Shown one piece after another: positions 1 through 34,869 of a stretch of DNA of 64,000 nucleotides (position 1 is the stretch's first letter; each line of letters begins with the position of its first letter). The DNA lies in the IMG/VR virus record IMGVR_UViG_3300028299_000006, positions 6,758-70,757 of that record; one strand, 5' to 3'. Both the position numbers and the translations under genes were made by a program. The stretch comes from a virus. The notes under the pieces are model-generated. The model did no database searches. It worked only from the letters and a program-made list of their open reading frames with translations, and was not told where the DNA came from.

Positions 1-248
1 AGAATAAAAGTTATCTCATCGTTTTTATCAGTTTTATCAATAAAAGATATATCAAATTGAACATTTCTTTTGGAAATTGTCAACAAATCATTAGATATTC
101 CATCTATATCATCCATTCTCTTTAAGATTTCAGCAAAATCTGAAGATATGTACATTCTCATATGTGATTTCAACGATTCTTTTTTCTTATCTTCTAATTC
201 ATCGGTTGTCAAATCCTCATTCATAAAATTATCATATTTATAAATCAT
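1..248 (-). CDS. Hypothetical protein, N-terminal part (runs off window start); related to 24005, 48386 and 53960
   Basis: Hand translation from ATG 248: MIYKYDNFMNEDLTTDELEDKKKESLKSHMRMYISSDFAEILKRMDD...DISFIDKTDKNDEITFI, open to position 1. Confidence 0.75.
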   Translation of the reverse strand, partial: MIYKYDNFMNEDLTTDELEDKKKESLKSHMRMYISSDFAEILKRMDDIDGISNDLLTISKRNVQFDISFIDKTDKNDEITFI

Positions 249-300
249 TGTTCAAAATTAGTTATTTTTTACTATATATTAAAATTTATTTTCAATATTT

Positions 301-3300
301 TCATAACGTAACTCTTGATTTTTGTACAGAACTAATTGGGGTTACTTGTATTGATGTGTTTAGTGTTGGTGTTGGTGGACTTGGTGGATTTACAGCTCTT
401 AAACTACCCTTGTGAAAAGTTCCATTCATAAAAATGCCGTTCCTAAAATTTCCATCTAAAAATTCACCATCTATCCACAGTCCATTTAAAAATTCACCAC
501 TTTGAAATATTGATGAACCACTAATTAATATATCGGTATTTTCAGTACCAAATACTCCATTATAAAATGTGCTATTATTGAAAATGCCAGTAAAGAAATG
601 TCCACCATAAAATTTACTATTTTTAAATGTGCCAAAATACCAATGTGATTTATTGTTATTTACAACATCTAGTGTTATACCAGTTGATGTATAAAATTCT
701 GAGTTATTAAAAGATCCATTCCACCATTCTGTTGTAGTTGATGATGTTGATAGTGTGTTATATCCGAATCTAGATAAAGACTTAGACATAGAAGTAAATA
801 TACCATTTTCCCAAATACCACTCTTGAAATCACCACTTAGAAATGTTCCGTTCCACCAGTTTCCATCAAATGTACCATTATAGAATTGACCATTTTTCCA
901 ATATCCACCATACATTTCACCATATAAGAATAATCCAGTTTCCCATATAGAATTTTTGAATTCACCATTATAAAAATTACCATTTTTCCATACCGTGACA
1001 TTAAGATTATTTGGTAATATATTAATATGATTTAAGAAAACTTTTGATGTGTATCCTGTTATAGAAACATCATCACCAAATATACCATTATACCAATTTC
1101 CATTTCTCCAAACACCATTTAAGAATTTTGAATATTTTTTATTATCATCTAAACTTTTAAACCTATCGTACGAGAATAATTCCTTTTTATCAATTAAATA
1201 ACTATACCATCTACCATTTCTCCATATTCCATCATACCAAGTTCCAGAATACCATGATCCATTAATCCATTCTCCACAATACCAATCACCCATATACCAA
1301 ACCAATCCATATTCGTTTTCACCAATAACAGCGTTTTTAAACGAAGCGTTAAACAACCACCCATATTTTATTTTTATTTTTTCAACGGTTAACCCATTAA
1401 CTAATTTCATAGATTGTTCTAGATAATTAAGATCAATACTAATCGTATGACCACTAACCATTGTATCTGAAATTAATATATTACTAGGTAATATCGGTAA
1501 AGGCATTTTGGTATGTTTATCTATACCAATATCAATCAATTCTACGGGTCTTAGTGTTAAATTTTCATCGTTATAATATAAAATATCATTAGTAAAACCA
1601 GATGATAGATATGTGTTTCCAGAATATCTTTCATTGTATAGTTTTAATATAAATCTATTCCTATTATCTGGATATATTGTGCCAGTTGTATACTCCATTA
1701 TTCTAGAATCCTTACTCAAAATTTCAGAATACGCTTTACATATTCTTTTAATTTCTTCATTATCTTTTTTATTATAGTAATCATTAGTTGATCCACTATA
1801 AATATCAATATTTCTATAGACATCATATAATGTCTCGGACATACCACTTAATGAGTATAATGATTTTATAGATGTAACCCTAGTTGTTAATCCTGTTGGG
1901 TGTTCTATGGTTATATAATCACAACCTTTATCTATTATAAATGCTTTATAGTTAGTGTTAATGCCAACTAGTGTGTGATTATAGAAATTATTTAAATCAC
2001 TAACTGATGTTGGTGTTATCTTTATTGGACTATCTAAATCTGTTGTTGTTTGTGGATATGATGAATCATCCAATAAATATGTATACGCGGATGTAAAATT
2101 TGTAATTGTAAATCCAGAATATAAAATAAAATCAGAATTAAATACGGTACTATTTATAGAGTTAAGATGTTCATATAATTTATAATCAATATAATAGTTA
2201 TTAGAATCAAATGTCTGCGCAGTTGTGTCCATATAGAATGTAATAGAATCATAATCAATATATCTATCAAATTTAGATTTTTTAGCTGAAATATTTATTG
2301 GAAATGTTGTACCAGTTATAGTATAAAATTTTCCATAAAAGTGGTTGTTTAATATATCTATAGATGTAGGCCAATCAGCGGATGATAATTTATTCAAATT
2401 TTCTATTCTTAAATATGTCATACCAGAATCACTATTATATCCATCTAAAATATAATTAGGAATATATTCATTTAATTCAATATAATTACCATATATACTT
2501 TTTATTTTTGAATTAAAGAATACATTTATAGTTTCACCACTAGTTATACCAGTCATAGTTATGTATAGATAATCATTAGGATCACAATTACTAGTGAATG
2601 TTGAATTAGTTTCTAGTTGTGTTGTACCACTATACCATGTCGTGCCTGTAAAATTACTAGTGTTATAATTAACAAATCCATCAACAGTAAATGATTCATA
2701 ATTATCACGATAATAAATTGTTATACCAGTAGATGGGGCGTTAGTAAATGTTATATCATTATAAAAACTATCATTATTTTTATTCAGTTTTCTAGCGAAA
2801 TCATAATCAGTGAACCATAATTTTGGTATTTCTAAATATGATGTTCCTGTATTATTTATATTATACTTAAATATATGTTTTATTATAAATGTATGTCCAG
2901 TATCAAAATATTTTACATCATCTGATATTGGAAAAGTATCACCAGTATTTCTTAAAAAGAATTCTATATTTGTATTATTATCCAATCTAGCATGAACCCC
3001 ATATCTATAAGAAGTTCCAGTTGTTGATAGATCATCTGTTCTTGTTAAATTTCCACCTATATCAAAAGAATAGATATCATTTTCTGTTTTGTCGTCTTGA
3101 TTAATAAGAATTATACGATGTGTAGATTTTAATGGTATATTATTTAGTTGTGTTATTTTTTGTGTTATATCAATATTATCTGCACTATATGTATCAACAT
3201 AAGTAAAATTATTCATAAATTCATTTATAACATCATATTCGTTATACATAAATTTTAGATATTCATTTCCACCAACCATTATACTTCTATTATAAATATC

Positions 3301-3492
3301 TCTTATATCTAATACATATTGATAACATACACCAGATACACATTGTTGATACTTAAAATAAGTATCCTCTAGATTGTGTATAGTTGGACTATCTCTATAT
3401 TTATCTAATCTATTGACCTTTTCCCATGTAACACCTGAAGTATGACCAGTATTTAAAAACCAATCAAATTTATAATTCCACAAATCACCCAT
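301..3492 (-). CDS. Large protein with C-terminal G-x-W/F-x-x pentapeptide repeats, possibly virion-associated
   Basis: 1063 aa ORF; T/S/N-rich body; repeats such as GDWYCGEWINGSWYSGTWYDGIWRNGRW. Confidence 0.6.
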   Translation of the reverse strand: MGDLWNYKFDWFLNTGHTSGVTWEKVNRLDKYRDSPTIHNLEDTYFKYQQCVSGVCYQYVLDIRDIYNRSIMVGGNEYLKFMYNEYDVINEFMNNFTYVDTYSADNIDITQKITQLNNIPLKSTHRIILINQDDKTENDIYSFDIGGNLTRTDDLSTTGTSYRYGVHARLDNNTNIEFFLRNTGDTFPISDDVKYFDTGHTFIIKHIFKYNINNTGTSYLEIPKLWFTDYDFARKLNKNNDSFYNDITFTNAPSTGITIYYRDNYESFTVDGFVNYNTSNFTGTTWYSGTTQLETNSTFTSNCDPNDYLYITMTGITSGETINVFFNSKIKSIYGNYIELNEYIPNYILDGYNSDSGMTYLRIENLNKLSSADWPTSIDILNNHFYGKFYTITGTTFPINISAKKSKFDRYIDYDSITFYMDTTAQTFDSNNYYIDYKLYEHLNSINSTVFNSDFILYSGFTITNFTSAYTYLLDDSSYPQTTTDLDSPIKITPTSVSDLNNFYNHTLVGINTNYKAFIIDKGCDYITIEHPTGLTTRVTSIKSLYSLSGMSETLYDVYRNIDIYSGSTNDYYNKKDNEEIKRICKAYSEILSKDSRIMEYTTGTIYPDNRNRFILKLYNERYSGNTYLSSGFTNDILYYNDENLTLRPVELIDIGIDKHTKMPLPILPSNILISDTMVSGHTISIDLNYLEQSMKLVNGLTVEKIKIKYGWLFNASFKNAVIGENEYGLVWYMGDWYCGEWINGSWYSGTWYDGIWRNGRWYSYLIDKKELFSYDRFKSLDDNKKYSKFLNGVWRNGNWYNGIFGDDVSITGYTSKVFLNHINILPNNLNVTVWKNGNFYNGEFKNSIWETGLFLYGEMYGGYWKNGQFYNGTFDGNWWNGTFLSGDFKSGIWENGIFTSMSKSLSRFGYNTLSTSSTTTEWWNGSFNNSEFYTSTGITLDVVNNNKSHWYFGTFKNSKFYGGHFFTGIFNNSTFYNGVFGTENTDILISGSSIFQSGEFLNGLWIDGEFLDGNFRNGIFMNGTFHKGSLRAVNPPSPPTPTLNTSIQVTPISSVQKSRVTL

Positions 3493-3575
3493 TTGATGCT
3501 TTAGTATTTTTATTTATATATAAAAAATAATGATTTGAAAATATTAATATATAAACAAAAATATATAACTATTTT

Positions 3576-4433
3576 ATGAAGTTATTCCATTCAAATTATA
3601 ATCCTGATCCAATAGATTTTGATACACTAAATTTAACAGAGTGTATTGAGATAATTAGAAAATATGTTATCTCTGATTATGATTTAACAGATCAAACAAT
3701 CGAATTGAAAATAATAAAATCTAGATTAGAAAAAATAAACAAAAGGTTTTATGAACTTTTTGATAATTTACATATGGCTTCTGTTATTATTGAACATAGG
3801 GATGATAACTTTATTATGTTACAATTTAATAAAAAATCTAGAGAATTAGATAAATTAACAGATGATGCAATAGGAAAATCATTGAAAGAAATATATCCTA
3901 GTATAGAGGATTTTCACATATTAAAAGTTTTTAAAAGGGTTTCCGAAACTGGTATACCAGAAAAACACACTGGAAAATATATTTATGATGGAACTAGAGA
4001 AGGATATAGAAATAGTTATATCTATAGATTGAATGATTATAGTGATAGAACAGAAATAGCGTCAATGTATGAAGATTTTACCCATATTAAAGATACATAT
4101 GACGCGTTTTATACTATATTTAATATGTCTCTGTGTCCGATGTGTATCCTAGATAAAAATTATGTTATATATGATGTAAACGAAAGTTTTTGTAAATATG
4201 TTAAATATGAAAGGAATGAATTAATTGATAATTCTGTGTTTAGAAAAAATATTATTTATGATTTAGAAGAAGATTTTTTAAAAGAATTAAGTGGAACTAA
4301 TGAAGTAAAAGAGTATAATGTGACAGGGGTATCAAAAAATAATGATTTCTTACAAGCGGTATTATCCGCACAGTATATAACAATTGAAGGTAATAAGTAT
4401 CTATTAACAGCTATAAGACCAATTCATAAATAA
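3576..4433 (+). CDS. Tandem PAS-domain sensor-like protein without kinase domain
   Basis: Two PAS-like segments (FN...IGKSLKEIYP...FKRVSETG; ILDKNYVIYDVNESFCKYVKYERNELI). Confidence 0.7.
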   Translation: MKLFHSNYNPDPIDFDTLNLTECIEIIRKYVISDYDLTDQTIELKIIKSRLEKINKRFYELFDNLHMASVIIEHRDDNFIMLQFNKKSRELDKLTDDAIGKSLKEIYPSIEDFHILKVFKRVSETGIPEKHTGKYIYDGTREGYRNSYIYRLNDYSDRTEIASMYEDFTHIKDTYDAFYTIFNMSLCPMCILDKNYVIYDVNESFCKYVKYERNELIDNSVFRKNIIYDLEEDFLKELSGTNEVKEYNVTGVSKNNDFLQAVLSAQYITIEGNKYLLTAIRPIHK

Positions 4434-4481
4434 ACTTAATTTAATTTTTTACATATAATAAAAAAATAATTATGTCCAATA

Positions 4482-4676
4482 ATGCATGATTTACGGAATA
4501 CACCAAGAAGAGAAAGAAAAATTAATATAAGAGGATTTTTTAAAAAATTAAAATGGAAACATTTAATATATTTATTAATAATTATTATCTTATTCTTTCC
4601 AACAGTTTCTGGTACAATAATAGGTAATTGGATTGTTGATTTTTTAGGAACTATAATTAGTATAATAAATGGATAA
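4482..4676 (+). CDS. Small membrane protein
   Basis: Basic N-terminus then hydrophobic LIYLLIIIILFFP segment. Confidence 0.6.
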   Translation: MHDLRNTPRRERKINIRGFFKKLKWKHLIYLLIIIILFFPTVSGTIIGNWIVDFLGTIISIING

Positions 4677-4863
4677 AGAATTTTATTTAGATAACATCAA
4701 GGTATTGGATTGGTTAACAAACGATGAATACCAAACTATTCGTTTTAAAAATAGAATAGAATATAGACATAATGGTAAATTAGATCGTGATGACGGGCCC
4801 GCGATAGAATACTTTGATGGAACTGAAGAATATTATAAAAATGGTGAAAAATACGAGAAATAA
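4669..4863 (+). CDS. Small phage protein with NGKLDRDDGPAIE repeat unit
   Basis: Motif HNGKLDRDDGPAIEY..G..EYYKNG is a common phage repeat. Confidence 0.65.
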   Translation: MDKEFYLDNIKVLDWLTNDEYQTIRFKNRIEYRHNGKLDRDDGPAIEYFDGTEEYYKNGEKYEK

Positions 4864-4864
4864 T

Positions 4865-5137
4865 TTACTTTTTATAAATCACACAATATGGATCGTTATT
4901 ACTCAATTGAATAATTTTTCTAAACGCTTCTCTGATATTACCATCAACAACTAATGGGTTATCCATAGATATGACCTTTTTCATCATCTTATAATTTATT
5001 TCATATGGATCACCTTTATAAACTATCTTATCAGTTTTTAATTCAAAAATCATATTTAATATTTCTTCATTTAGAGATTGTTGACTTTTAAAGCTTCTAT
5101 ATGTGATTTTTTCTTTAAGATCTAACTCCACTATCAT
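4865..5137 (-). CDS. Hypothetical protein
   Basis: 90 aa ORF fitting gene packing. Confidence 0.55.
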   Translation of the reverse strand: MIVELDLKEKITYRSFKSQQSLNEEILNMIFELKTDKIVYKGDPYEINYKMMKKVISMDNPLVVDGNIREAFRKIIQLSNNDPYCVIYKK

Positions 5138-5270
5138 TTGTTTATTTTGAATTTTTATATCTTTTTTTATTAAAAGTTTTAAAGAAAAAATGATATTTAT
5201 ATTTTTATATATAAAAATTACAACTTAATAATTTTATTTTATTATAAAATACAAAAAAGTAGAAAAAGAT

Positions 5271-5795
5271 ATGAAAAGAGTTAAAAATTTTACAGAATTT
5301 CTAAAAGAATCAAATATTTTCCCACAAGACGATATGCCACAAACCGAAATTCCACAGGGTGAAATGGATGATGAGTTTATTCAAAACGAATATCCACAAG
5401 ACGAATTTATTCCAAATAGGGAAGAATCAGAAGATGAGGAAAAAGAAGAAATGGTAGAAATAACATATAATAAAACCACAGATTCTTGGAATGTTGATAG
5501 AGAACTAGACGAACCTACTGATATTGATGAATTCACAGAGTGGTTTAATAGTATTGATGAAGAAGAAACAACGGTATCTATGACAGAAAATGATGAAAGA
5601 GATGAAGTTACTTTCTTTATTCCAGAATATCTATATGTTGAATATCTAGAAGGTGTTGGAGGAACAAAAGCTCCTGATTACGATGTTGATAATGATACAG
5701 GAGAGATTATTGATTATGATAACGATGATGATATTGAAAATATAGGTGGTGATCTTAATTTTGATAATCTTGATGATGACGAAGATGATATTTAA
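5271..5795 (+). CDS. Highly acidic protein with capsid-targeting-like N-terminus
   Basis: MKRVKNFTEFLKES start; D/E-rich. Confidence 0.65.
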   Translation: MKRVKNFTEFLKESNIFPQDDMPQTEIPQGEMDDEFIQNEYPQDEFIPNREESEDEEKEEMVEITYNKTTDSWNVDRELDEPTDIDEFTEWFNSIDEEETTVSMTENDERDEVTFFIPEYLYVEYLEGVGGTKAPDYDVDNDTGEIIDYDNDDDIENIGGDLNFDNLDDDEDDI

Positions 5796-6464: not shown

Positions 6465-6806
6465 TTAGTCCTTTATTATAAATTTTTCTTCATCATCTAA
6501 GTCTTCTATAACATCCGCGTCCAAATATTCACCAGTTATTTTATAATATAAATCAATGTAGTCATCATCATCCAATTCTTTACCAATTAATTTCTCAACA
6601 TAGTCAATAATATCTTTGGTATTTATTGGCTTTTTTAGAGTTTTGAAATATTGATACGCCTGATCAATAAATTTGTTTATATTTTCATCACCTTCTTCTT
6701 TTACCACACCTTCATTTACTGGATTATGTAAAAATTTTTTATATTTTAATAAATTTGACATTTTACATTTCTTATTTTTTTGTATATATAAAAAATTTTC
6801 ATTCAA
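6465..6806 (-). CDS. Hypothetical protein (start probably 6761, MSNLLKYKKF)
   Basis: ORF; internal Met follows a TATATA promoter-like site. Confidence 0.55.
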   Translation of the reverse strand: MNENFLYIQKNKKCKMSNLLKYKKFLHNPVNEGVVKEEGDENINKFIDQAYQYFKTLKKPINTKDIIDYVEKLIGKELDDDDYIDLYYKITGEYLDADVIEDLDDEEKFIIKD

Positions 6807-11984: not shown

Positions 11985-13312
11985 TAACAGATAAAAAAGT
12001 TGATATTAGAATAGTTAGTAATAATATCAATAGATATAAAAATTTAGGATATAACTGTAAAGTGGGTGATAATATAAATATAAATATTGATGAATTACCT
12101 GAAAAATCACATGTGAAAGTAAATTCTATTTGTGATATATGTGGAAAAGAAAATTTTATAAGTTATCAATCATACAATAAGAATTATAGTAAATATAATA
12201 TTTATACATGTCATAGTTGTTCTTTAGTTAAAAATATTCAGACTAATAATAAAAGATTTGGTTATGATCACCCATTGAAAAATAAAACAATAAGAGAAAA
12301 AATAAAACAAACCAATATTGAAAAATGTGGTGTTGAGAATCCTTTTCAATCTGAAAAAATAAAAGAAAAAATAAAAGAAACAAATTTAGAAAGATATGGG
12401 GTTGAATATGTTCAACAAAATAAAGAAATTTTAAATAAATCAAATAATACAAATATAAAGAAATATGGTGTTAATAGACCATCAAAAAATAAGAATATTT
12501 ATAAAAAAATAAAAGATACAAAGAATAAAAAATATGGAAACGAAAATTATAATAATATAGATAAAATAAAACAAACTAATATTGAGAAATATGGTGTTGA
12601 TAATGTGTCTAAATTGAAAGATCACAAATTAAAAACACAGAATTATTATAGAGATAAAATGTTGGTTAATTATGATAATATTTTGAATATTGATTATAAT
12701 AAAGACATTTATTATTGTAAATGTAAGAATGGACACGAATATGAGATAAGAATTGGATTATATCATAACAGATTATCACATAGTATAAATACATGTACTA
12801 TCTGTTATCCAGAAAATGAGTTGAATTCAATAAAAGAATTGGAATTGTTAGATTTTATTAAATCTAATTATAATGGCAACATAATAAAAAATGATAGAAA
12901 AATATTGAATGGGAAAGAATTAGATATTTATTTACCTGATTTATATTTAGCGTTTGAATATAATGGATTATATTGGCATAGTAATATTTATAAGGATGAC
13001 TTATATCATATTAATAAAATAAGAAATTGTTTAATAAAAGGAGTTCAACTTGTTTATGTTTGGGAAGATGAATGGATTAAAGAAAATGAAAAGACAAAAA
13101 ATAATATTTTAAATATTTTAAAAAATAAAAAAGATATAGAAATTAATTCTTTTTTAATAAGTGATAAAATATTAGACAATTATTACATTGTTGACAAAAT
13201 AATACCAAGTAAATGGATAATTGATGGAATAAATAGAATCAAATCTAATAATAATAACTCTACTTATTTTATGGATACAGGTAAGACGATATTAAAAAAA
13301 TGCACTGTTTAA
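11981..13312 (+). CDS. Free-standing homing endonuclease-like protein (KYGV repeats plus PD-(D/E)xK/Vsr-like domain) between terminase halves
   Basis: TNIEKYGV repeats; ELDIYLPDLYLAFEYNGLYWH...VWEDEW. Confidence 0.8.
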   Translation: MITDKKVDIRIVSNNINRYKNLGYNCKVGDNININIDELPEKSHVKVNSICDICGKENFISYQSYNKNYSKYNIYTCHSCSLVKNIQTNNKRFGYDHPLKNKTIREKIKQTNIEKCGVENPFQSEKIKEKIKETNLERYGVEYVQQNKEILNKSNNTNIKKYGVNRPSKNKNIYKKIKDTKNKKYGNENYNNIDKIKQTNIEKYGVDNVSKLKDHKLKTQNYYRDKMLVNYDNILNIDYNKDIYYCKCKNGHEYEIRIGLYHNRLSHSINTCTICYPENELNSIKELELLDFIKSNYNGNIIKNDRKILNGKELDIYLPDLYLAFEYNGLYWHSNIYKDDLYHINKIRNCLIKGVQLVYVWEDEWIKENEKTKNNILNILKNKKDIEINSFLISDKILDNYYIVDKIIPSKWIIDGINRIKSNNNNSTYFMDTGKTILKKCTV

Positions 13313-15603
13313 TGAAAAAAATAGTAATATTTATATTAAATTTTTTTATAATATTGATAGAAAAATATCAATATAGAAAATTAGATCTTGATGAGGATAA
13401 TCAATTTAAAAAAATTATTAATACTATATTTACAGATTATATGATGGTAGAAACCCATAATGGATTTGTTACGTTTGGTGAAATAAATATAACTCAACCT
13501 TTACAAAGATATAGTTTAGAATTATGTGATGGAAAAAAACTAGAGTGTGCTGACAATCATATTGTTTTTTGTGATAATTTTATTGAAAAAATGGTGATAG
13601 ATTTAACCACTGATGATTATGTTTTAACCAAAAATGGTAAAAGTAAAGTTAAGTCTATTAAAAAACTTTATGGAAAATATAGTATGTTTGATTTATCAGT
13701 AGATAGTTTTGATATGAGTTATTATACAAATGATATATTATCACATAATACAATTTCAACCGCTATTTATATTTTATGGTATATTTTATTTAATGATAAT
13801 AAAGGGGTTATGATTGTAGCGAATAAATCAAAGACGACAAAAGAGATTATTAATAAAATAAAATCCATTTATAAATTATTACCATTTTATTTAAAAATTG
13901 GTGTTGTAAACTGGAATGAAAATTCAATATCATTAGATAATGGTTCTAGAATACAAACTGAAGCGAGAACAACAGAACCAGCGATTGGTTTTACGATTGA
14001 TTTGTTATATTTGGATGAATTCGCGAAAGTACCAGATAATATCGTTAGAAAATATTATGGTGAAGTAGTACCAATTGTATCATCTATTGAAAATTCAAAA
14101 ATTATTATTACATCAACACCAGATGGATTTAATTTATTCTGGGAACTAATGATGGGAGCGGAAAAATCAAAAGATGATGATGATAATAATGGATACTCTT
14201 CTATGAGAGTTTATTGGTATCAGGTTAAAGGTAGAAGAGATACAAAAATTATTATAAATAAAACAAAATTACGAAGATTGTTAAATAAAGGATTAACTAA
14301 GACATATTTAAAGAATTATTTAAAAGATTCTGGGTATAGAATATATGATGATTCATCTAGTCTAGATAATATATTTATTAGAAGATTTAAAGATGATAGA
14401 GAAAAATATCTATGTTCAAAATCCGATATTAGTGATATTAGAAAAATGTTAATACCATGTTCTGATGGTACTAATGTCGCGTTATCAGAAATTACAAGAA
14501 TAACAAATTGGGAAGAAGAACAGACAAAATTGATTGGTGGGGAATCTATGTTCAAACAAGAGTTTGATTTAGAATTTTTAACAGATGATAAGACATTGTT
14601 TGATAGTATTAAATTCCAACAAATAGTTCAGAATATAAAACATTATGAACATATTGAAATTGATAATTTTAGTAAAAAACTACCAATACCTTATACAAAT
14701 TTAAAATTTGTACATGATTCTCCAGAATTATTTGAATTTAGTAAAAGACGAGATTATTATATTTTTATGGGCATAGATCTCGCGGAAGGGTTGGGAATAG
14801 ATTATACTGTTATAAATATTTTTAAAGTGTCACAAAAAGATGAAGAATGGATTAATGATAATAAAGAAAGTATAAATACTGTTTATGATTTTTTCAAATT
14901 AGATCAAATAGGTATGTGGAAATCAAATATTTATAAAATTAGTGAGGTGTCACATTTACTTTATATGATTGCGTTTGAATTTTTTGATCCTGAAAAAGTT
15001 AGAGTTATTGTTGAGATGAATAAAAATTTAGGAAATCATTTATTTGATATTTTACCATATGTTTTTGATGGTAACAATGATTATGGAGATGCGATATTTC
15101 TAAGGTTTAAACACAGAGAAACAGATAAATATCCAAAAAGAGGATTATTAGTAGGTCAAGATAAAAAATATTTAGTTAAAGAATTTCAGGATAATGTTAT
15201 GAAAGATAATATTATGTTGACAAATGAGTCAAACATAATAGAACTTAAATCATTCGCGAAGAAAGAAACACCTAGTGGTGAGGTAACATATAAATCACAA
15301 ACTGGGCATGATGATATGGTTATGAGCTGCGTAAATCTCGCGTCCGCGTTCAATCACCCATATTATAAAGATTCTGTTGATAGATACATTGATAATGGGT
15401 TATCAGAAGATTATAAACCACTTATTTTTGAATATATGGATAGAAAGGGTGATAATAGTGGGTTAAAAGCGATTTCAGGAATTTATAGTAAGATATACAA
15501 AAAAGGTGTCATAGGTTCAGATAATCAAATATTTTTTCCAAGATTAGATAAAAAATATAATTTAGGAATTAAAAATATAGAAAATTGGTACAAAAAATCA
15601 TAA
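13300..15603 (+). CDS. terL: Split intein C-part (to 13749) fused to terminase large subunit C-terminal ATPase/nuclease (start probably 13312)
   Basis: Block B ECADNH, YYTNDILSHN/T junction, Walker B LYLDEFA, ITSTP, GIDLAEG, HDDMVMS. Confidence 0.9.
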   Translation: MHCLMKKIVIFILNFFIILIEKYQYRKLDLDEDNQFKKIINTIFTDYMMVETHNGFVTFGEINITQPLQRYSLELCDGKKLECADNHIVFCDNFIEKMVIDLTTDDYVLTKNGKSKVKSIKKLYGKYSMFDLSVDSFDMSYYTNDILSHNTISTAIYILWYILFNDNKGVMIVANKSKTTKEIINKIKSIYKLLPFYLKIGVVNWNENSISLDNGSRIQTEARTTEPAIGFTIDLLYLDEFAKVPDNIVRKYYGEVVPIVSSIENSKIIITSTPDGFNLFWELMMGAEKSKDDDDNNGYSSMRVYWYQVKGRRDTKIIINKTKLRRLLNKGLTKTYLKNYLKDSGYRIYDDSSSLDNIFIRRFKDDREKYLCSKSDISDIRKMLIPCSDGTNVALSEITRITNWEEEQTKLIGGESMFKQEFDLEFLTDDKTLFDSIKFQQIVQNIKHYEHIEIDNFSKKLPIPYTNLKFVHDSPELFEFSKRRDYYIFMGIDLAEGLGIDYTVINIFKVSQKDEEWINDNKESINTVYDFFKLDQIGMWKSNIYKISEVSHLLYMIAFEFFDPEKVRVIVEMNKNLGNHLFDILPYVFDGNNDYGDAIFLRFKHRETDKYPKRGLLVGQDKKYLVKEFQDNVMKDNIMLTNESNIIELKSFAKKETPSGEVTYKSQTGHDDMVMSCVNLASAFNHPYYKDSVDRYIDNGLSEDYKPLIFEYMDRKGDNSGLKAISGIYSKIYKKGVIGSDNQIFFPRLDKKYNLGIKNIENWYKKS

Positions 15604-25302: not shown

Positions 25303-27495
25303 TCATGGATATACATATTTAATACCATTTTTTATAGCTATTTCTTTTACTTTCATAATAGTTTCCATAGATTCTCGTGGGACTTCACTCATTTTATATC
25401 TAGGGGAGAATGGAATTAAATGTACTGGAACATCCTCAAATCCATTGTCAAATAACCAGTTGTACATATTTTCTATTTCCCCAATATCATCGGTATGGCC
25501 TGGTATTATAAGATTAGTTATCTCTAACCATACTTTACTATCTTTTAATGTTTTTAATGTTTCTAGTACTGGATATAAACTACCTTTAGTTATCTTACGA
25601 TATTTATCATCATTAAAAACTTTCAAGTCTATATTCGCAGCGTCCATATATTCTATTAATTCTTCTAGTGGTTTTGGGTTTATATATCCATTTGATACCA
25701 TTATATTCTTTATTCCTCGTTCTTTCGCTAGTTTCGCGATATCTAACATATATTCATAGTATATTGTTGGTTCTGTGTATGTGTATGATATTGATTTACA
25801 ACCTTTTGATAAACAATCATTTATTATATCCAATGGGGTGATATTTGTCTCTCTATCCAATGGAGCTTGTGATATACCACTATTTTGACAGTTTAGACAC
25901 TTGAAATTACATCCATTACAAGATAATGAATACGTTAAAGTTCCTGGTAAAAAATGACGAAGTGGCTTTTTTTCAACTGGATCCATCGCCCCAGTTATAC
26001 TTGGGTTGTTATAAACTAATGAATATAAAATCCCATTTATGTTTTTTCTAGCGGTACATATACCAATTTGACCATTTGATAATTTACAATTATGTGGACA
26101 AAGATTACATATTACATTATTATCATCTTTCATGTAATACATCGCTTCCTTATATTTTGGTTTTTCATCAAATACAATCGCTTCGTAGGTGTAAATATTA
26201 GCGTCTTTCCAATCTTTCCAACCTAATCCCATTTTAGAACTAGAGCACTGTCCTAAAAATTCTTCCTTTGTCCATCCTGTTTCTGTAGCGACTTGTGGTA
26301 GAAAAGTTCCACTTCTGCTGTTTTTTTCCATATAAATACCATGTTTTCCAAGAATTATTTCATCAATATTATCAATTTTTTTAAATGGGGTTAAAACGGA
26401 TATCTCTATTTTTATTTTATCTAGTTCATCTTCAGTTACTTTATTAAATCTAGTATCTCTTGTTGAAGAACTAATTGTCATTTCTTTAACAACATCACAT
26501 AACCAATAATTTGGAGAAAATAATCCTATACATCCTCTTAGATTTCCATCAATTTTCAGTGTAACGAACGCTCCCATATTTACCTTAACATTATCCGATA
26601 AGTCATCTAACCGTTCTTTATCAATTTTATTATATTTAATTAGATTTGTTAATGTAGTTCGTGATATTTTTAATAAATCCTCTTTATCTTTTTCTGTTAA
26701 AATATCCTTTTCTTTTTCTTTATAAAATCCAATAGAATAATATCCAACAACTTTACTGTGTCCATTAGTTACATCACCAGATGTTCTATTACTTATTATT
26801 TTACCTTTTATATTCTCATCTTTTAATATGTTCATAAGAATTAATATAGAAGACCACCCACAACACCTAGTTACTAGATGTTCATATCCTAATTTTTCTG
26901 TTTCGGATAAAAATCCATCAATGTCTAAATTTATTATCTTTTCTACTATTTCACTGTCTAGTTTTACCGCGTTTTCATGAGATGGATAATGAGAAAAATC
27001 TGAACTTATTATGAATAAATTATTTCCATTGAAATATTTTTTCAAAGAATTTGATATTGATATAAGATTATTTCTGTTACTATCACCAATCATAATTGGA
27101 ATAATTTTAACATATGGTAATAAATTTTTGACAAATGGTAGTTGAATTTCTAAATTATGATCACCAACTAAAATACTATTATCCTTAAAAAATAGATTAT
27201 TATCATTAATTAATTCGGTACATATCTCTTTATTTATAGATAATTCATTATAATTATCATCATCTATTAGACACCCACCTTTATATACAGTTTTATGACT
27301 TGTTCCTATAATAAATACATTATCATATTTATCAATTTGTTTATATCCATCTGATGCGATTTGACCAGAAAAATAATAACCCGCGTGTGGGACAATTATG
27401 GATAGAACATTATCAATAGTTTTCTCAGAAATATCTAAGAAGTTTTTCGTATCACGACCTCCTATAAATTGTTTTGTAATTTCACTTAATTCCAT
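25303..27495 (-). CDS. AmmeMemoRadiSAM triple fusion: MEMO1-like, AMMECR1 and radical SAM domains
   Basis: VPHAGY, HNLEIQLPF, SSDFSHY; GAFVTL..LRGCIG, GTFLPQVA; CNLCPHNC, DPVEKKPL, CNFKCLNC, YTEP. Confidence 0.9.
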   Translation of the reverse strand: MELSEITKQFIGGRDTKNFLDISEKTIDNVLSIIVPHAGYYFSGQIASDGYKQIDKYDNVFIIGTSHKTVYKGGCLIDDDNYNELSINKEICTELINDNNLFFKDNSILVGDHNLEIQLPFVKNLLPYVKIIPIMIGDSNRNNLISISNSLKKYFNGNNLFIISSDFSHYPSHENAVKLDSEIVEKIINLDIDGFLSETEKLGYEHLVTRCCGWSSILILMNILKDENIKGKIISNRTSGDVTNGHSKVVGYYSIGFYKEKEKDILTEKDKEDLLKISRTTLTNLIKYNKIDKERLDDLSDNVKVNMGAFVTLKIDGNLRGCIGLFSPNYWLCDVVKEMTISSSTRDTRFNKVTEDELDKIKIEISVLTPFKKIDNIDEIILGKHGIYMEKNSRSGTFLPQVATETGWTKEEFLGQCSSSKMGLGWKDWKDANIYTYEAIVFDEKPKYKEAMYYMKDDNNVICNLCPHNCKLSNGQIGICTARKNINGILYSLVYNNPSITGAMDPVEKKPLRHFLPGTLTYSLSCNGCNFKCLNCQNSGISQAPLDRETNITPLDIINDCLSKGCKSISYTYTEPTIYYEYMLDIAKLAKERGIKNIMVSNGYINPKPLEELIEYMDAANIDLKVFNDDKYRKITKGSLYPVLETLKTLKDSKVWLEITNLIIPGHTDDIGEIENMYNWLFDNGFEDVPVHLIPFSPRYKMSEVPRESMETIMKVKEIAIKNGIKYVYP

Positions 27496-31929: not shown

Positions 31930-32070
31930 ATGGCAAAAAAAGTAGTAGCAGGTTTTAAGGAAAAGGGAGTTGGAAAGGAATATGTTAAGTTAATAACAAT
32001 GGTTAAAGGTAGGAGTGGGGGATGGAAATTTTTAGAGAAAATTGTAAGAAAAGATGAAATAATAAAATAA
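31930..32070 (+). CDS. DUF4295 / ribosomal protein bL38-like protein, 46 aa (missing from ORF track)
   Basis: MAKKVVAGFKEKGVGKEYVKLITMVKGRSGGWKFLEKIVRKDEIIK fits the Bacteroidota MAKK.VA...K.I.MVK...G...F.E pattern. Confidence 0.75.
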   Translation: MAKKVVAGFKEKGVGKEYVKLITMVKGRSGGWKFLEKIVRKDEIIK

Positions 32071-32073
32071 AAT

Positions 32074-32156
32074 GCCTGGTTCGCATAGTGATCGATTGCG
32101 CTGGATTTGTAACCCAGATCTGAAAAGACTCGTCAGTTTGAATCTGACACCAGGCT
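32074..32156 (+). tRNA. tRNA-Thr(UGU) with long variable arm
   Basis: GCCTGGT/ACCAGGC acceptor; CTGGA-TTTGTAA-CCCAG anticodon arm; GTCAG-TTTGAAT-CTGAC T arm. Confidence 0.75.
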
Positions 32157-32168
32157 CTGTAAATTTTT

Positions 32169-32882
32169 TTGGCTCTTGTTTTTTACTATATACATATAAA
32201 AACAATGAAATGGAATGATGATAAAGTAAAAGAGTTGAAAAAATTATTGAAAGATAATAAAACATACAAAGATATTGGTGAATATTTTAATATAACACCA
32301 CATTCAGTTAAATGTAAGATTCGTAAAATGAATCTTATATATAACAAACCAGTTAAAACTGAGGATAAATTTGTATGTTTGACATGTAATGAAGAGTTCT
32401 TTGATAAGTATGATAGAAAATTTTGTAGTAAATCTTGTTCTACGATTTATAATAATAGAAAACGAAAGATTATTAAATTTTGTTTGAATTGTAATGTGGA
32501 ACTAAGTAGAAGTAATAGAAAATTTTGTTCAAATAAATGTCAAAATGATTATGAATATTCAACATTTATAACAAAATGGAAAAATGGTGAGTTAAGTGGA
32601 ACAAGAGGAAATTACGGTACTTCAAGTAATATTAGAAGATATTTATTTGAAAAGTATGATAACAAATGTTCAAAATGTGGATGGGGGGTAATTAATGAAT
32701 ACACAGGTAAAATACCATTAGAAATTGAACATATTGATGGAAATAGTGAAAATAACAAAGAGGAAAATTTGACATTATTGTGTCCTAGTTGTCATTCATT
32801 AACAAAAACATATAAGGGTGCAAATAGAGGTAACGGTAGACATAATAGGAGAAAGAGATATTTGGAAAATAAATCATATTAA
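32169..32882 (+). CDS. HNH endonuclease with HTH and zinc-ribbon repeats (start probably MKWNDD)
   Basis: CSKCGW...LEIEHIDGNSENN..ENLTLLCPSCH. Confidence 0.88.
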   Translation: MALVFYYIHIKTMKWNDDKVKELKKLLKDNKTYKDIGEYFNITPHSVKCKIRKMNLIYNKPVKTEDKFVCLTCNEEFFDKYDRKFCSKSCSTIYNNRKRKIIKFCLNCNVELSRSNRKFCSNKCQNDYEYSTFITKWKNGELSGTRGNYGTSSNIRRYLFEKYDNKCSKCGWGVINEYTGKIPLEIEHIDGNSENNKEENLTLLCPSCHSLTKTYKGANRGNGRHNRRKRYLENKSY

Positions 32883-32910
32883 GGTTCTTTGACATATTGG
32901 AATAAAAAAT

Positions 32911-33012
32911 GAATGGGTGGCGGAAACGACATACGCACCAGACTCTAAACTGGAGTGGAATTATAGGAACGAGATAACTACCACAATACGGGTTTAAACC
33001 CCGTCCCATTTA
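32911..33012 (+). tRNA. Leu-type tRNA body with CUA anticodon (amber suppressor-like or degenerate)
   Basis: GAATGGG/CCCATTT acceptor, A73, CCAG-ACTCTAAA-CTGG arm, about 34-nt variable arm, ACGGG-TTTAAAC-CCCGT. Confidence 0.55.
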
Positions 33013-33018
33013 CAAATT

Positions 33019-33319
33019 CGGGATGTAGTTCAGTTGGCTAGAATACGCGGTTTGGGTCCGTGAGGTCGTAGGTTTAATGTTTGGACCCCTTTGATAGTAA
33101 TATCAAAATGAAAATCGGATGAATTGCTGGAAATCTAAGTTCGTGAGAATATGACAATCAGCAGCCAAGCTTTTGGTACACCAAAAGAAGGTTCAGAGAC
33201 TAGTGGAGAGATATAGTTCTCTTAATAACCACATAAGCGTCCGACATCCATTTATGGATGATGATATAGTCCAATCCTTATAGAAATATAAGGTAAGATT
33301 GCGAGTCCTATCATCCCGA
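33019..33319 (+). tRNA. tRNA-Pro(UGG) split by a group I intron in the T-loop (exons 33019-33074 and 33302-33319)
   Basis: CGGGATG/CATCCCG acceptor; CGCGG-TTTGGGT-CCGTG; joined T arm GTAGG-TT/CGAGT-CCTAT. Confidence 0.88.
33075..33301 (+). ncRNA. Group I intron, 227 nt, no ORF, at tRNA position 55/56
   Basis: P GAATTGCTGGAAA, Q AATCAGCAGCC, R GTTCAGAGACTA, S GATATAGTCC; follows U, ends in G; GGACC can form P1 with exon GGTT. Confidence 0.88.
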
Positions 33320-33324
33320 CATTT

Positions 33325-33593
33325 GGCCCCATAACATAACGGATAATGTACAAGTCTTTAAGAGAGGAGCTTTTATTGAGAAATTAATAAAATGGAATCT
33401 GTCAAATTCGGGGAAACCTTTAAAATGGTAATCCCGAGCCAAATCTCGAAAGAGAGAGGTGTAGAGACTAGACGGCAGACACCTAAGTTGTAAAATAAGG
33501 TGAAGGGATAGTCCAGACCACAAACAGAAATGGCAATAAAAATTGTAGTGGTAAGCTAAACTTGAAATCTAGGTTCGATTCCTAGTGGGGTCA
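33325..33593 (+). tRNA. tRNA-Arg(UCU) split by a group I intron in the anticodon (exons 33325-33358 and 33556-33593)
   Basis: GGCCCCA/TGGGGTC acceptor; joined CAAGT-CTT/CTAA-ACTTG; CTAGG-TTCGATT-CCTAG. Confidence 0.85.
33359..33555 (+). ncRNA. Group I intron, 197 nt, no ORF, at tRNA position 34/35
   Basis: P CAAATTCGGGGAAA, Q AATCCCGAGCC, R GTAGAGACTA, S GGGATAGTCC; terminal G. Confidence 0.88.
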
Positions 33594-33981: not shown

Positions 33982-34662
33982 ATGAAAAAATGGAATCAAG
34001 AAGATATAGAAAAATCTATTTCATTGCTAAAAAATGGTAAATCTTATGATGAAATAGGATTAATATTAGGAAGGAATGGTCAGTCAGTAAGATGCAAAAT
34101 AAGAAAATTTGGGATAAAATCTATAGATTATAGAAAGTTTGAAAAAGATAAAGAAAAAAAATGCTTGAATTGTGGTAACTTAATTTATGGGTATAAAAAG
34201 TTCTGTAATAATTCATGTTCAGCAATTTATAATAATATGAAAAGAAAAAAGGTTAGATATTGTTTAAATTGTGGTAACAAAATAGATAAAGGAATAAAAT
34301 ATTGTTCTGGTAAATGCCAGTTAGATTATCAGTATAATGATTATATAAAAAGATGGAAGAATAATGAAGTAGTGGGTAATAAAAAACCAGATGGTATTTC
34401 AAATTATATTAGAAAATATATTTTTGAAAAGTATGAGAATAAGTGTTGTAAATGTGAATGGCAGAAATTTAATAAACATACTAATAAAGTTCCATTACAA
34501 ATAGACCATATAGATGGTAACTATATGAATAATAAAGAAGAAAATTTGAGATTATTATGTCCAAATTGTCATTCATTAACAGAAAATTATGGTGGTAGAA
34601 ATAAAGGAAATGGGAGAAAATATAGACAAGAATGGAGAAATAAAAAGCGAGATGTAGCTTAA
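33982..34662 (+). CDS. HNH endonuclease, paralog of 32169; stop overlaps the next tRNA
   Basis: CCKCEW...LQIDHIDGN..NN..ENLRLLCPNCH. Confidence 0.88.
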   Translation: MKKWNQEDIEKSISLLKNGKSYDEIGLILGRNGQSVRCKIRKFGIKSIDYRKFEKDKEKKCLNCGNLIYGYKKFCNNSCSAIYNNMKRKKVRYCLNCGNKIDKGIKYCSGKCQLDYQYNDYIKRWKNNEVVGNKKPDGISNYIRKYIFEKYENKCCKCEWQKFNKHTNKVPLQIDHIDGNYMNNKEENLRLLCPNCHSLTENYGGRNKGNGRKYRQEWRNKKRDVA

Positions 34663-34795: not shown

Positions 34796-34869
34796 GCGGG
34801 GTTAGCTTAACAGAGTAAAGCGTCTAGTAATTCCAACTAGGAGATGAAGTTCAACCCTATCACCCCGCT
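34796..34869 (+). tRNA. tRNA-Gly-like gene with irregular anticodon and T arms (possibly pseudo)
   Basis: GCGGGGT/ACCCCGC acceptor, U73, CTAGTAATTCCAACTAG arm, bulged T stem. Confidence 0.55.

Follow-up and report, generated by a model that had tools for sequence, protein, structure and literature searches.

A tmRNA-type T-loop group I intron in the tRNA-Pro(UGG) gene of a viral tRNA array

Group I introns have been described in the T-loop of transfer-messenger RNA (tmRNA) genes. The available part of PMC11915505 gives 883 unique sequences at four T-loop subsites, of which 'position 3' is used in Bacteroidia only, and two boundary rules, namely that the U at position -1 pairs with a G and that the intron ends in G. 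Group I introns of bacterial transfer RNA (tRNA) genes are placed in the anticodon loop in the consulted portions of PMC4033280 and PMC8450103, which agrees with what an initial annotation of the locus studied here, made from its letters alone, had stated. Non-canonical positions, including the T-arm, are documented for archaeal tRNA introns in the part of PMC4090602 available to us. In the literature searched, which was largely without subscription journals and supplements, no report was found of a tRNA whose T-loop carries a group I intron. Here, we describe an intron at this place in a tRNA-Pro(UGG) gene, carried by a stretch of 64,000 nucleotides (nt) of viral DNA (positions 6,758 to 70,757 of IMG/VR record IMGVR_UViG_3300028299_000006) that is called the window in what follows. 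Coordinates are positions on the one strand of the window, unless another locus is named.

The intron resembles the archaeal T-arm introns in that it lies outside the anticodon loop and blinds the gene finder (same part of PMC4090602). However, archaeal introns are short bulge-helix-bulge elements that depend on a protein endonuclease and a ligase, whereas the one in the window has the complete core of a group I ribozyme. It also differs from the anticodon-loop introns of bacterial tRNAs, since its site in the T-loop means that helix P1 consumes nucleotides of the T-arm instead of the anticodon arm. The anticodon-loop type is present in the same window, in a tRNA-Arg(UCU) gene split at 34/35 that lies 24 nt downstream. 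The features of the split tRNA-Pro gene and its intron are as follows.

33019–33074, plus strand: 5′ exon of tRNA-Pro(UGG), nt 1–55 (sequence; ARAGORN cloverleaf of the joined exons)
33075–33301, plus strand: group I intron of 227 nt (match to RF00028; named helices; minimum free energy (MFE) fold)
33302–33319, plus strand: 3′ exon of tRNA-Pro, nt 56–73 (sequence; ARAGORN)
33071–33087, plus strand: P1, exon GGUU (33071–33074) and intron UAA (33075–33077) with UUGGACC (33081–33087) (Rfam alignment; sequence)
33079–33083, plus strand: candidate P10 guide, with CGAGU of the 3′ exon (33302–33306) as partner (read from the sequence)
33090–33096 with 33101–33107, plus strand: P2, 7 base pairs (bp), GUAA tetraloop (6 of 7 pairs change on both sides in relatives; MFE fold)
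33115–33121 with 33238–33244, plus strand: P3 (96.7% of cells paired; 2 pairs with compensatory change)
33125–33130 with 33158–33163, plus strand: P4 (named helices, alignment counts, MFE fold)
33134–33135 with 33153–33154, plus strand: P5 (named helices, alignment counts, MFE fold)
33139–33142 with 33147–33150, plus strand: P5a, GUGA loop (named helices, alignment counts, MFE fold)
33164–33166 with 33190–33192, plus strand: P6 (named helices, alignment counts, MFE fold)
33170–33176 with 33181–33187, plus strand: P6a (named helices, alignment counts, MFE fold)
33198–33202 with 33267–33271, plus strand: P7, GACUA/UAGUC (invariant, paired in 10 of 10 sequences; matches the Rfam consensus)
33203–33232, plus strand: P7.1, a GUGG/CCAC stem that encloses a further hairpin, located between P7 and P3′ (named helices, alignment counts, MFE fold)
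33246–33250 with 33255–33259, plus strand: P8, 5 bp (98% of cells paired; 3 pairs with compensatory change)
33276–33282 with 33287–33293, plus strand: P9, 7 bp, GAAA tetraloop (Rfam alignment, counts, MFE fold)
33301, plus strand: omega G, the terminal guanosine directly before the 3′ splice site (sequence)

The 5′ exon comprises the acceptor strand CGGGATG, the D arm, the anticodon loop TTTGGGT, the variable loop, the T-stem strand GTAGG and the residues T54 and T55, and ends in ...GTAGGTT at 33074. The 3′ exon begins with CGAGTCCTATCATCCCGA at 33302 and holds the T-loop portion CGAGT, the T-stem strand CCTAT, the acceptor strand CATCCCG and the discriminator A. When the insert was removed by coordinates, ARAGORN read the joined exons (33019–33074 plus 33302–33319) as a 75-base tRNA-Pro(tgg), in line with the earlier claim that removal of 33075–33301 restores GTAGG-TTCGAGT-CCTAT and a full cloverleaf. 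The joined tRNA has a 7-bp acceptor stem with C1-G72, followed by A73, a G53-C61 pair, the anticodon loop UUUGGGU, the T-stem GUAGG/CCUAU and a canonical 7-nt T-loop, UUCGAGU. A cloverleaf with an NGG anticodon makes it a tRNA-Pro, and C1-G72 together with A73 are identity elements of bacterial-type tRNA-Pro. The host is a tRNA gene and not a tmRNA gene, as it has neither a tag reading frame nor a G3.U70 pair. Its anticodon loop is unbroken and the insert sits at 55/56, within the 7-nt T-loop (TT|CGAGT), with boundaries that restore this loop. In the unedited window ARAGORN did not call the split gene, although it called 13 tRNAs elsewhere, none of which is a second tRNA-Pro, and the Rfam tRNA model missed it in the unedited DNA at both gathering and permissive thresholds. 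These results support the view, anticipated in the initial annotation, that the T-loop of tRNA-Pro(UGG) is split between positions 55 and 56 by a group I intron, which hides the gene from standard annotation.

The nature of the insert, also proposed by the initial annotation, was confirmed by a covariance-model search. RF00028 (group I intron) matched 33065–33293 over the whole model (1–253) with 121.1 bits, against a gathering score of 50, and an E value of 4.9e-31 in the 64-kb window, far beyond what is expected by chance. This was the top RF00028 score among the family members scanned, the others reaching 78–104 bits. No open reading frame (ORF) was found in the 227-nt intron. When the named structure was laid on ten aligned family members, 90.6% of 662 cells were paired, versus 32.6–45.0% in slid controls, in which the 3′ partners were moved by 1–3 columns; the structure was derived from the window sequence and is thus somewhat favoured against these controls, but the margin is large. 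Both sides change in 29 of the 68 pairs, and none of 500 column shuffles reached the observed covariation score. P4, P6 and P7 are invariant across the ten sequences, and P2, P3, P5, P6a, P8 and P9 covary. P7, the guanosine-binding helix, forms a pseudoknot with P3, and the P3–P9 core with this pseudoknot and its covariation places the intron in group I. An unconstrained MFE fold of 33065–33306 recovered all helices except the P7 pseudoknot (z = -3.88; 0 of 200 shuffles were as stable).

Between P7 and P3′ there is an extra hairpin, P7.1, which may correspond to that of IA-type introns; Michel and Westhof are said to have described subgroup IA, in 1990, as the introns bearing P7.1/P7.2 extra helices between P7 and P3′. 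In three tmRNA relatives (L190, L177 and L176) P7.1 differs in sequence and is read as pairing alike, and several of its columns count as unpaired in 3 of 10 sequences as MAFFT aligned these three.

Regarding the splice sites, the exon side of P1 consists of G33071-C33087, G33072-C33086, U33073-A33085 and U33074.G33084, and the helix extends into the intron by U33075.G33083, A33076-U33082 and A33077-U33081. The 5′ splice site follows directly after U33074, so that the predicted U-G pair of a P1 formed by GGTT with GGACC is seen together with three Watson-Crick exon pairs; the insert also ends in G (G33301), as had been noted. The same two consecutive U.G pairs are present in P1 of the tmRNA relatives, and the last intron base is G in 6 of 7 aligned relatives and A in the megaphage genome LR756501. 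A P10 helix can form between 33083–33079 and CGAGU by the pairs C-G, G.U, A-U, G.U and U.G. P1 with GGUU and this candidate P10 fit the suggestion that the intron targets GGTTCGA. Only one combination of cuts, after U33074 and after G33301, unites a U.G-paired U at position -1, a terminal G and a 7-nt UUCGAGU loop, which puts the intron between tRNA positions 55 and 56. The U.G pair and the terminal G thus carry the assignment of this junction, together with the possible P10, a T-loop of the canonical 7 nt and the relatives.

The relatives show that the family has another principal host, a context that the initial annotation had missed: the closest ones split phage tmRNA genes at the same TT|CGA subsite. 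Among phages, the best blastn match was LR756501, with 78.7% identity over 205 nt. Its intron (L003 1492–1720) lies after ...CAGGGTT and before CGAATCCCTG-CGGGTCC-A, and ARAGORN reads the joined gene as a tmRNA. It ends in A, and as the identical sequence occurs in two metagenome contigs as well (L315 and L328), a sequencing error is unlikely. The family motif was found in 7 IMG/VR loci, 6 of which gave a full RF00028 match at the same place. After joining, ARAGORN called tRNA-Ala(tgc) in L010, L006 and L012, where the intron lies between T54 and T55 (T|TCGA), and a tmRNA in L007; it made no call in L011, which has flanks like those of L007.

A survey of phage contigs for tRNAs of the GGTT-intron-CGA kind, as proposed in the initial annotation, was performed with a strict family pattern (GGTT in the 5′ exon, T in the intron, GGACC as guide, and the P3/P4 block). 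Matches were obtained in 27 viral loci, in 6 contigs of genomes and in 80 of metagenomes, several of the metagenome contigs being the same contigs as viral loci, to judge from length and identical introns. Including the window and LR756501, 115 places were sorted by a perfect 5-bp T-stem, a perfect 7-bp acceptor stem and a terminal G. One of the 115, the window, is a tRNA; 65 are tmRNA-like (5′ end 200–520 nt upstream, G3.U70, ...CCA), 45 of them also called by ARAGORN -m; the locus was too short in 10, and 39 were unassignable under the strict rules. With relaxed rules, L259 was recognised as a tRNA-Ala(tgc) whose intron, 223 nt long and ending in G, lies at 55/56, so that the window (Pro) and L259 (Ala) are the only tRNA hosts among the 115 places. 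L003, L315 and L328 represent one tmRNA with the intron ending in A. Among the 39, about 10 GC-rich loci look protein-coding and many others resemble tmRNA genes in their 5′ flanks, although the available sequence is too short. One further tRNA-Ala 5′ half (L360), cut by the contig end, came from a pattern made for the 54/55 sister clade. In total, the hosts are tRNA-Pro once (the window), tRNA-Ala five times and tmRNA at least 65 times, and tRNA-Pro is the sole family host here without alanine-type identity.

Identities and a tree were computed for 53 resolved T-loop introns, 39 of them distinct. The window intron is 75.6%, 75.5% and 74.8% identical to those of L007, L289 and L011, respectively, all tmRNA introns at the TT|CGA subsite; overall, it shares 70–76% with tmRNA introns and 71–73% with the 54/55 Ala introns. 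In the unrooted FastTree phylogeny the 54/55 Ala introns, three in number, group together (support 0.95), the L259 Ala intron nests in a different tmRNA subclade (0.95) and the window intron is a long single branch, which indicates that at least three intron lineages reside in tRNA genes. With the family profile the window scored 240.5 bits, but it is one of the 7 profile sequences (A1); the next-best matches outside the profile (L190, L177 and L176) are of tmRNA type. The guide follows the exon in these introns: GGGUU goes with GGACCC in 55/56-type introns, and in the 54/55 tRNA-Ala introns UGGGU goes with GCCCA (L010 and L006) and CGGU with GCCG (L012). This is the behaviour expected of working P1 helices.

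An exact 19-base pattern from the P7.1 region matched no viral contig, the relatives differing from it at one base, and a 14-base pattern gave 120 loci that were nearly all chance matches, among which the family profile found an intron in one new locus only (L098). A junction test on a sample of the broad subgroup, with 24,686 candidate joins from 145 resolved introns, for which 29 further candidates without a 3′ anchor were dropped, found tRNA spans joined for only four introns, those of the window, L010, L006 and L012. This test can miss cases, as it demanded a T at -1, a G at the intron end and a P1 score no lower than 4; it missed the ORF-bearing L008.

Taken together, it is very probable that the window carries, in the tRNA-Pro(UGG) gene of the tRNA array of a megaphage related to LR756501, an ORF-less group I intron that belongs to the tmRNA-type T-loop family and is functional and self-splicing. 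This conclusion is built on the identity of the intron, its conserved and covarying structure, the intact exons, the splice-site signals and the family relationships. From these sequence features we infer that splicing actually takes place, and likewise the direction of transfer and the mode of mobility considered below.

Several observations weigh against this interpretation. The tRNA-Pro host is a single case, 1 of 115 family-pattern places, with no second Pro example. The exon side of its P1 has four pairs only, versus five in the tmRNA relatives, because A33070 stands opposite C33088. The intron of LR756501, the closest large-phage relative, has A as its last base, which shows that the rules are not kept by all members of the clade. 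As even the nearest relative shares only about 75% identity, a recent loss of activity would be compatible with the sequence. Finally, of 49 junction pairs displaced by at most 3 nt to either side, 24 are still read as tRNA-Pro by ARAGORN; given this tolerance, the exact 55/56 site has to rest on the other evidence.

The single Pro host, the mismatch that weakens P1, the relative with a non-G last base and the lack of an endonuclease ORF in the intron itself would all suit a decaying, splicing-incompetent insertion, in which case the tRNA-Pro would be a pseudogene killed by ectopic intron invasion. We consider this unlikely: the RF00028 match covers the full model and, at 121 bits, exceeds those of all other family members scanned (78–104), all core helices are intact, with P4, P6 and P7 identical to those of the relatives, and the exons keep a perfect cloverleaf. 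Moreover, there is no other tRNA-Pro in the array of 13 tRNAs, so the gene is not redundant there. Splicing at a neighbouring junction, for example after U33075 (U.G-paired with G33083), which would give a non-canonical T-loop, appears very unlikely. Although P1 contains two consecutive U.G pairs, ARAGORN tolerates shifted junctions and the sister clade uses 54/55, the 7-nt UUCGAGU loop and the terminal G coincide only with 33074|33302, the alternatives giving 6- or 8-nt loops. In addition, the tmRNA relatives share the UU|U arrangement and their T-loops are restored by TT|CGA, and the candidate P10 pairs best with CGAGU. An assembly chimera of the tRNA with the intron of another genome, conceivable for a metagenome source with related introns of other organisms in the same lake samples (records 2, 4, 10 and 15), is extremely improbable, since exact contigs bridge both junctions in two sequencing runs from different samples and the two halves fit one cloverleaf exactly.

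Nine DNA runs that hold at least one fifth of the sampled words of the window are lake-water metagenomes. In run X1, which may be the source sample, record 1 corresponds exactly to 32000–33288 and record 3 to 33260–35272. In run X2, from a sample other than the probable source, record 18 corresponds to 33029–33246 and record 19 to 33260–33523, and the presence of both exon-intron junctions within these X2 contigs argues against a chimera. Metatranscriptome runs held small word shares (0.10 and 0.06) and gave exact contigs for 32538–33034 (X11 record 9) and for 33128–33278, inside the intron (X13 record 14). No contig of these two runs joins 33074 to 33302 or covers the spliced exons, and DNA carry-over is possible in them. 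An intron-less allele was not found either: an unchanged 29-base stretch of the 5′ exon matched 0 viral contigs, and a 60-base query against LR756501 gave only a 20-base D-arm match, within an array of 10 tRNAs of which none is Pro.

For the intron in the tRNA-Pro gene, the most likely course of events would be ordinary two-step, guanosine-initiated self-splicing that restores the T-loop. The tRNA array would be transcribed and the intron would then fold, its guide drawing the T-arm nucleotides G52, G53, U54 and U55 into P1. An external guanosine bound in P7 would attack after U55 (U33074), P10 would align C56 and the following nucleotides, and the freed 3′-OH of U55 would attack after G33301, so that exon ligation would recreate the T-loop UUCGAGU. 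Because P1 would sequester G52–U55, folding of the T-arm, processing of the ends and formation of T54 and pseudouridine-55 could only come afterwards.

With respect to its origin, the most likely view of the intron is that of a selfish passenger. Its source was probably a T-arm target of tmRNA or Ala-like type, from which it would have entered the near-universal GGTT|CGA through reverse splicing or through homing assisted by an endonuclease. Reverse splicing into an exposed GGUU|CGA would be an attractive route. A transfer in the direction from tmRNA to tRNA would be favoured for two reasons, namely that tmRNA hosts far outnumber tRNA hosts and that the guide of the window intron, GGACCCC, suits GGGUU, as found in the T-arms of tmRNA and Ala, leaving the A33070/C33088 mismatch in tRNA-Pro, which offers AGGUU. 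Phage tmRNA genes host a sizeable family of T-loop introns, and the window intron is an offshoot of it and not an isolated case. We put forward only tentatively that the family roves between tmRNA and ordinary tRNA genes of large phages through GGTT|CGA, probably by reverse splicing. If so, tRNA-Pro would be the first host without alanine-type identity, any tRNA would in principle be a target and the tRNA repertoires of phages would be systematically under-counted. A bolder version would have the phage benefit from the intron, for example through splicing-gated maturation of the tRNA; what speaks for it is solely that gene and ribozyme are intact.

The source IMG/VR record comprises 70,757 bases and is about 10% complete according to CheckV. 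The window encodes a T4-type large terminase at 13300–15603, whose best phage match was in LR756501 (735 kb), at 53.6% identity over 93%; the next were in records of 635, 642 and 636 kb. These four are the largest genomes of the 'Mahaphage' clade, and those above 634 kb are all predicted to infect Bacteroidetes in the main text of PMC7162821. With the tmRNA T-loop introns, as covered in the available part of PMC11915505, the window intron shares family (about 75% identity), loop and boundary rules. If 'position 3' is the third inter-nucleotide position, as its figure legend suggests, it is the same TT|CGA subsite as in the window, and its restriction to Bacteroidia fits the hosts predicted for the megaphage relatives in PMC7162821. 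The differences are that the host gene in the window is an elongator tRNA-Pro(UGG), without the alanine identity pair G3.U70 that the 65 tmRNA-like matches have in their acceptor stems, and that its T-stem strand GTAGG leaves one mismatch with the inherited guide. The psbA intron of Synechococcus phage S-PM2 belongs to the same broad subgroup (blastn, 76.4% over 177 nt of the core), and many psbA-type matches share the P3–P6 pattern. However, psbA-type phage introns interrupt coding sequences, and P1 guide, P2 and P9 differ from those of the window intron.

The T-loop site had been regarded as unusual in the initial annotation. This holds for a tRNA host, but among tmRNA introns the site is established (available part of PMC11915505), and so it is new for the host and not for the intron family. 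The novelty can be put in two equivalent ways: an intron of the tmRNA T-loop type has a host gene of a new class, or a group I intron of a tRNA has a new site. As far as described, tRNA group I introns were found only in the anticodon loop and T-loop ones only in tmRNA, and the locus bridges both by showing that an ordinary elongator tRNA can harbour a member of a ribozyme family tuned to the T-arm. With the five phage tRNA-Ala cases added, the occupation of tRNAs extends to at least three separate intron lineages. The huge-phage survey of PMC7162821, in whose main text the word 'intron' is absent, used tRNAscan-SE and ARAGORN. As split genes escape ARAGORN and the Rfam tRNA model, tRNA and tmRNA counts of large phages are lower bounds. 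Since it is a compact 227-nt ribozyme without ORF whose P1 competes with folding of the T-arm, the intron would be tractable for ordering splicing, tRNA folding and the modifications T54 and pseudouridine-55.

Five nt after the tRNA-Pro gene a second intron-split tRNA begins (33325–33593), with exons at 33325–33358 and 33556–33593 and the intron at 33359–33555; RF00028 matched 33348–33537 with 89.5 bits. Joining 33358 to 33556 gives a tRNA-Arg(tct) (ARAGORN) with the intron between anticodon positions 34 and 35 (CTT|CTAA). This intron belongs to another sequence family, as the T-loop family profile gives only one match in the window, and its 3′ part resembles the same-site tRNA-Leu(UAA) introns of L008 and LR756501. 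In LR756501 (about 190.3 kb; L005 about 1470–1715, minus strand) a group I intron (RF00028, 56.6 bits) interrupts a tRNA-Leu(UAA) at 34/35; a megaphage thus has an intron at the site known as the classical one of cyanobacterial type, and ARAGORN calls no tRNA in L005.

Two free-standing ORFs for HNH endonucleases with zinc-ribbon repeats (32169–32882 and 33982–34662), paralogues with 49% identity, bracket the stretch of the array that holds both intron-split tRNAs. As candidates for the endonuclease of the intron they were discarded, having no meaningful similarity to the intron ORF of L008 (E 0.014 over 25 residues), and any link between them and intron mobility is a guess.

Further group I introns were seen at other loci. 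L008 (about 2200–2960) holds a family member with a 204-aa HNH ORF in the anticodon loop of a tRNA in a phage tRNA array, and its tRNA-Leu(UAA) 34/35 intron adjoins this HNH-bearing intron. L220 (about 70–5450, minus strand) contains 11 RF00028 matches in 5.4 kb, mostly about 20–80 nt apart, and near back-to-back runs of group I introns also occur in L197, L166, L163 and L133; the junction test gave no tRNA host for such runs. Record 4 of run X1, a 6.3-kb contig from the same lake sample, matches 33260–33308, that is, the last 42 nt of the intron and CGAGTCC, with 3 differences, and continues into a different, Ala- or tmRNA-like acceptor end, so that it looks like another T-loop-split gene of the community.

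Upstream of the tRNA-Pro gene, at 32911–33012, lies a 102-nt tRNA that ARAGORN missed and the Rfam tRNA model detected with 34.2 bits under the permissive filter. Its anticodon loop is CUCUAAA, with a CUA anticodon that would decode UAG, and its extra arm is 31 nt long. Recoding of stop codons is not supported in the window: TAG ends 5 of 52 long frames, and long open frames gain only about 4% when it is taken as a sense codon. A gene resembling tRNA-Gly(tcc) (Rfam, 35.8 bits) lies at 34796–34869, directly after a normal tRNA-Gly(tcc); for ARAGORN to accept it, a 2-nt 'intron' has to be allowed, which means an anticodon loop of 9 nt. Outside the array, the minus strand carries at 25303–27495 an ORF of 730 aa that fuses Memo-like, AMMECR1 and radical-SAM domains.

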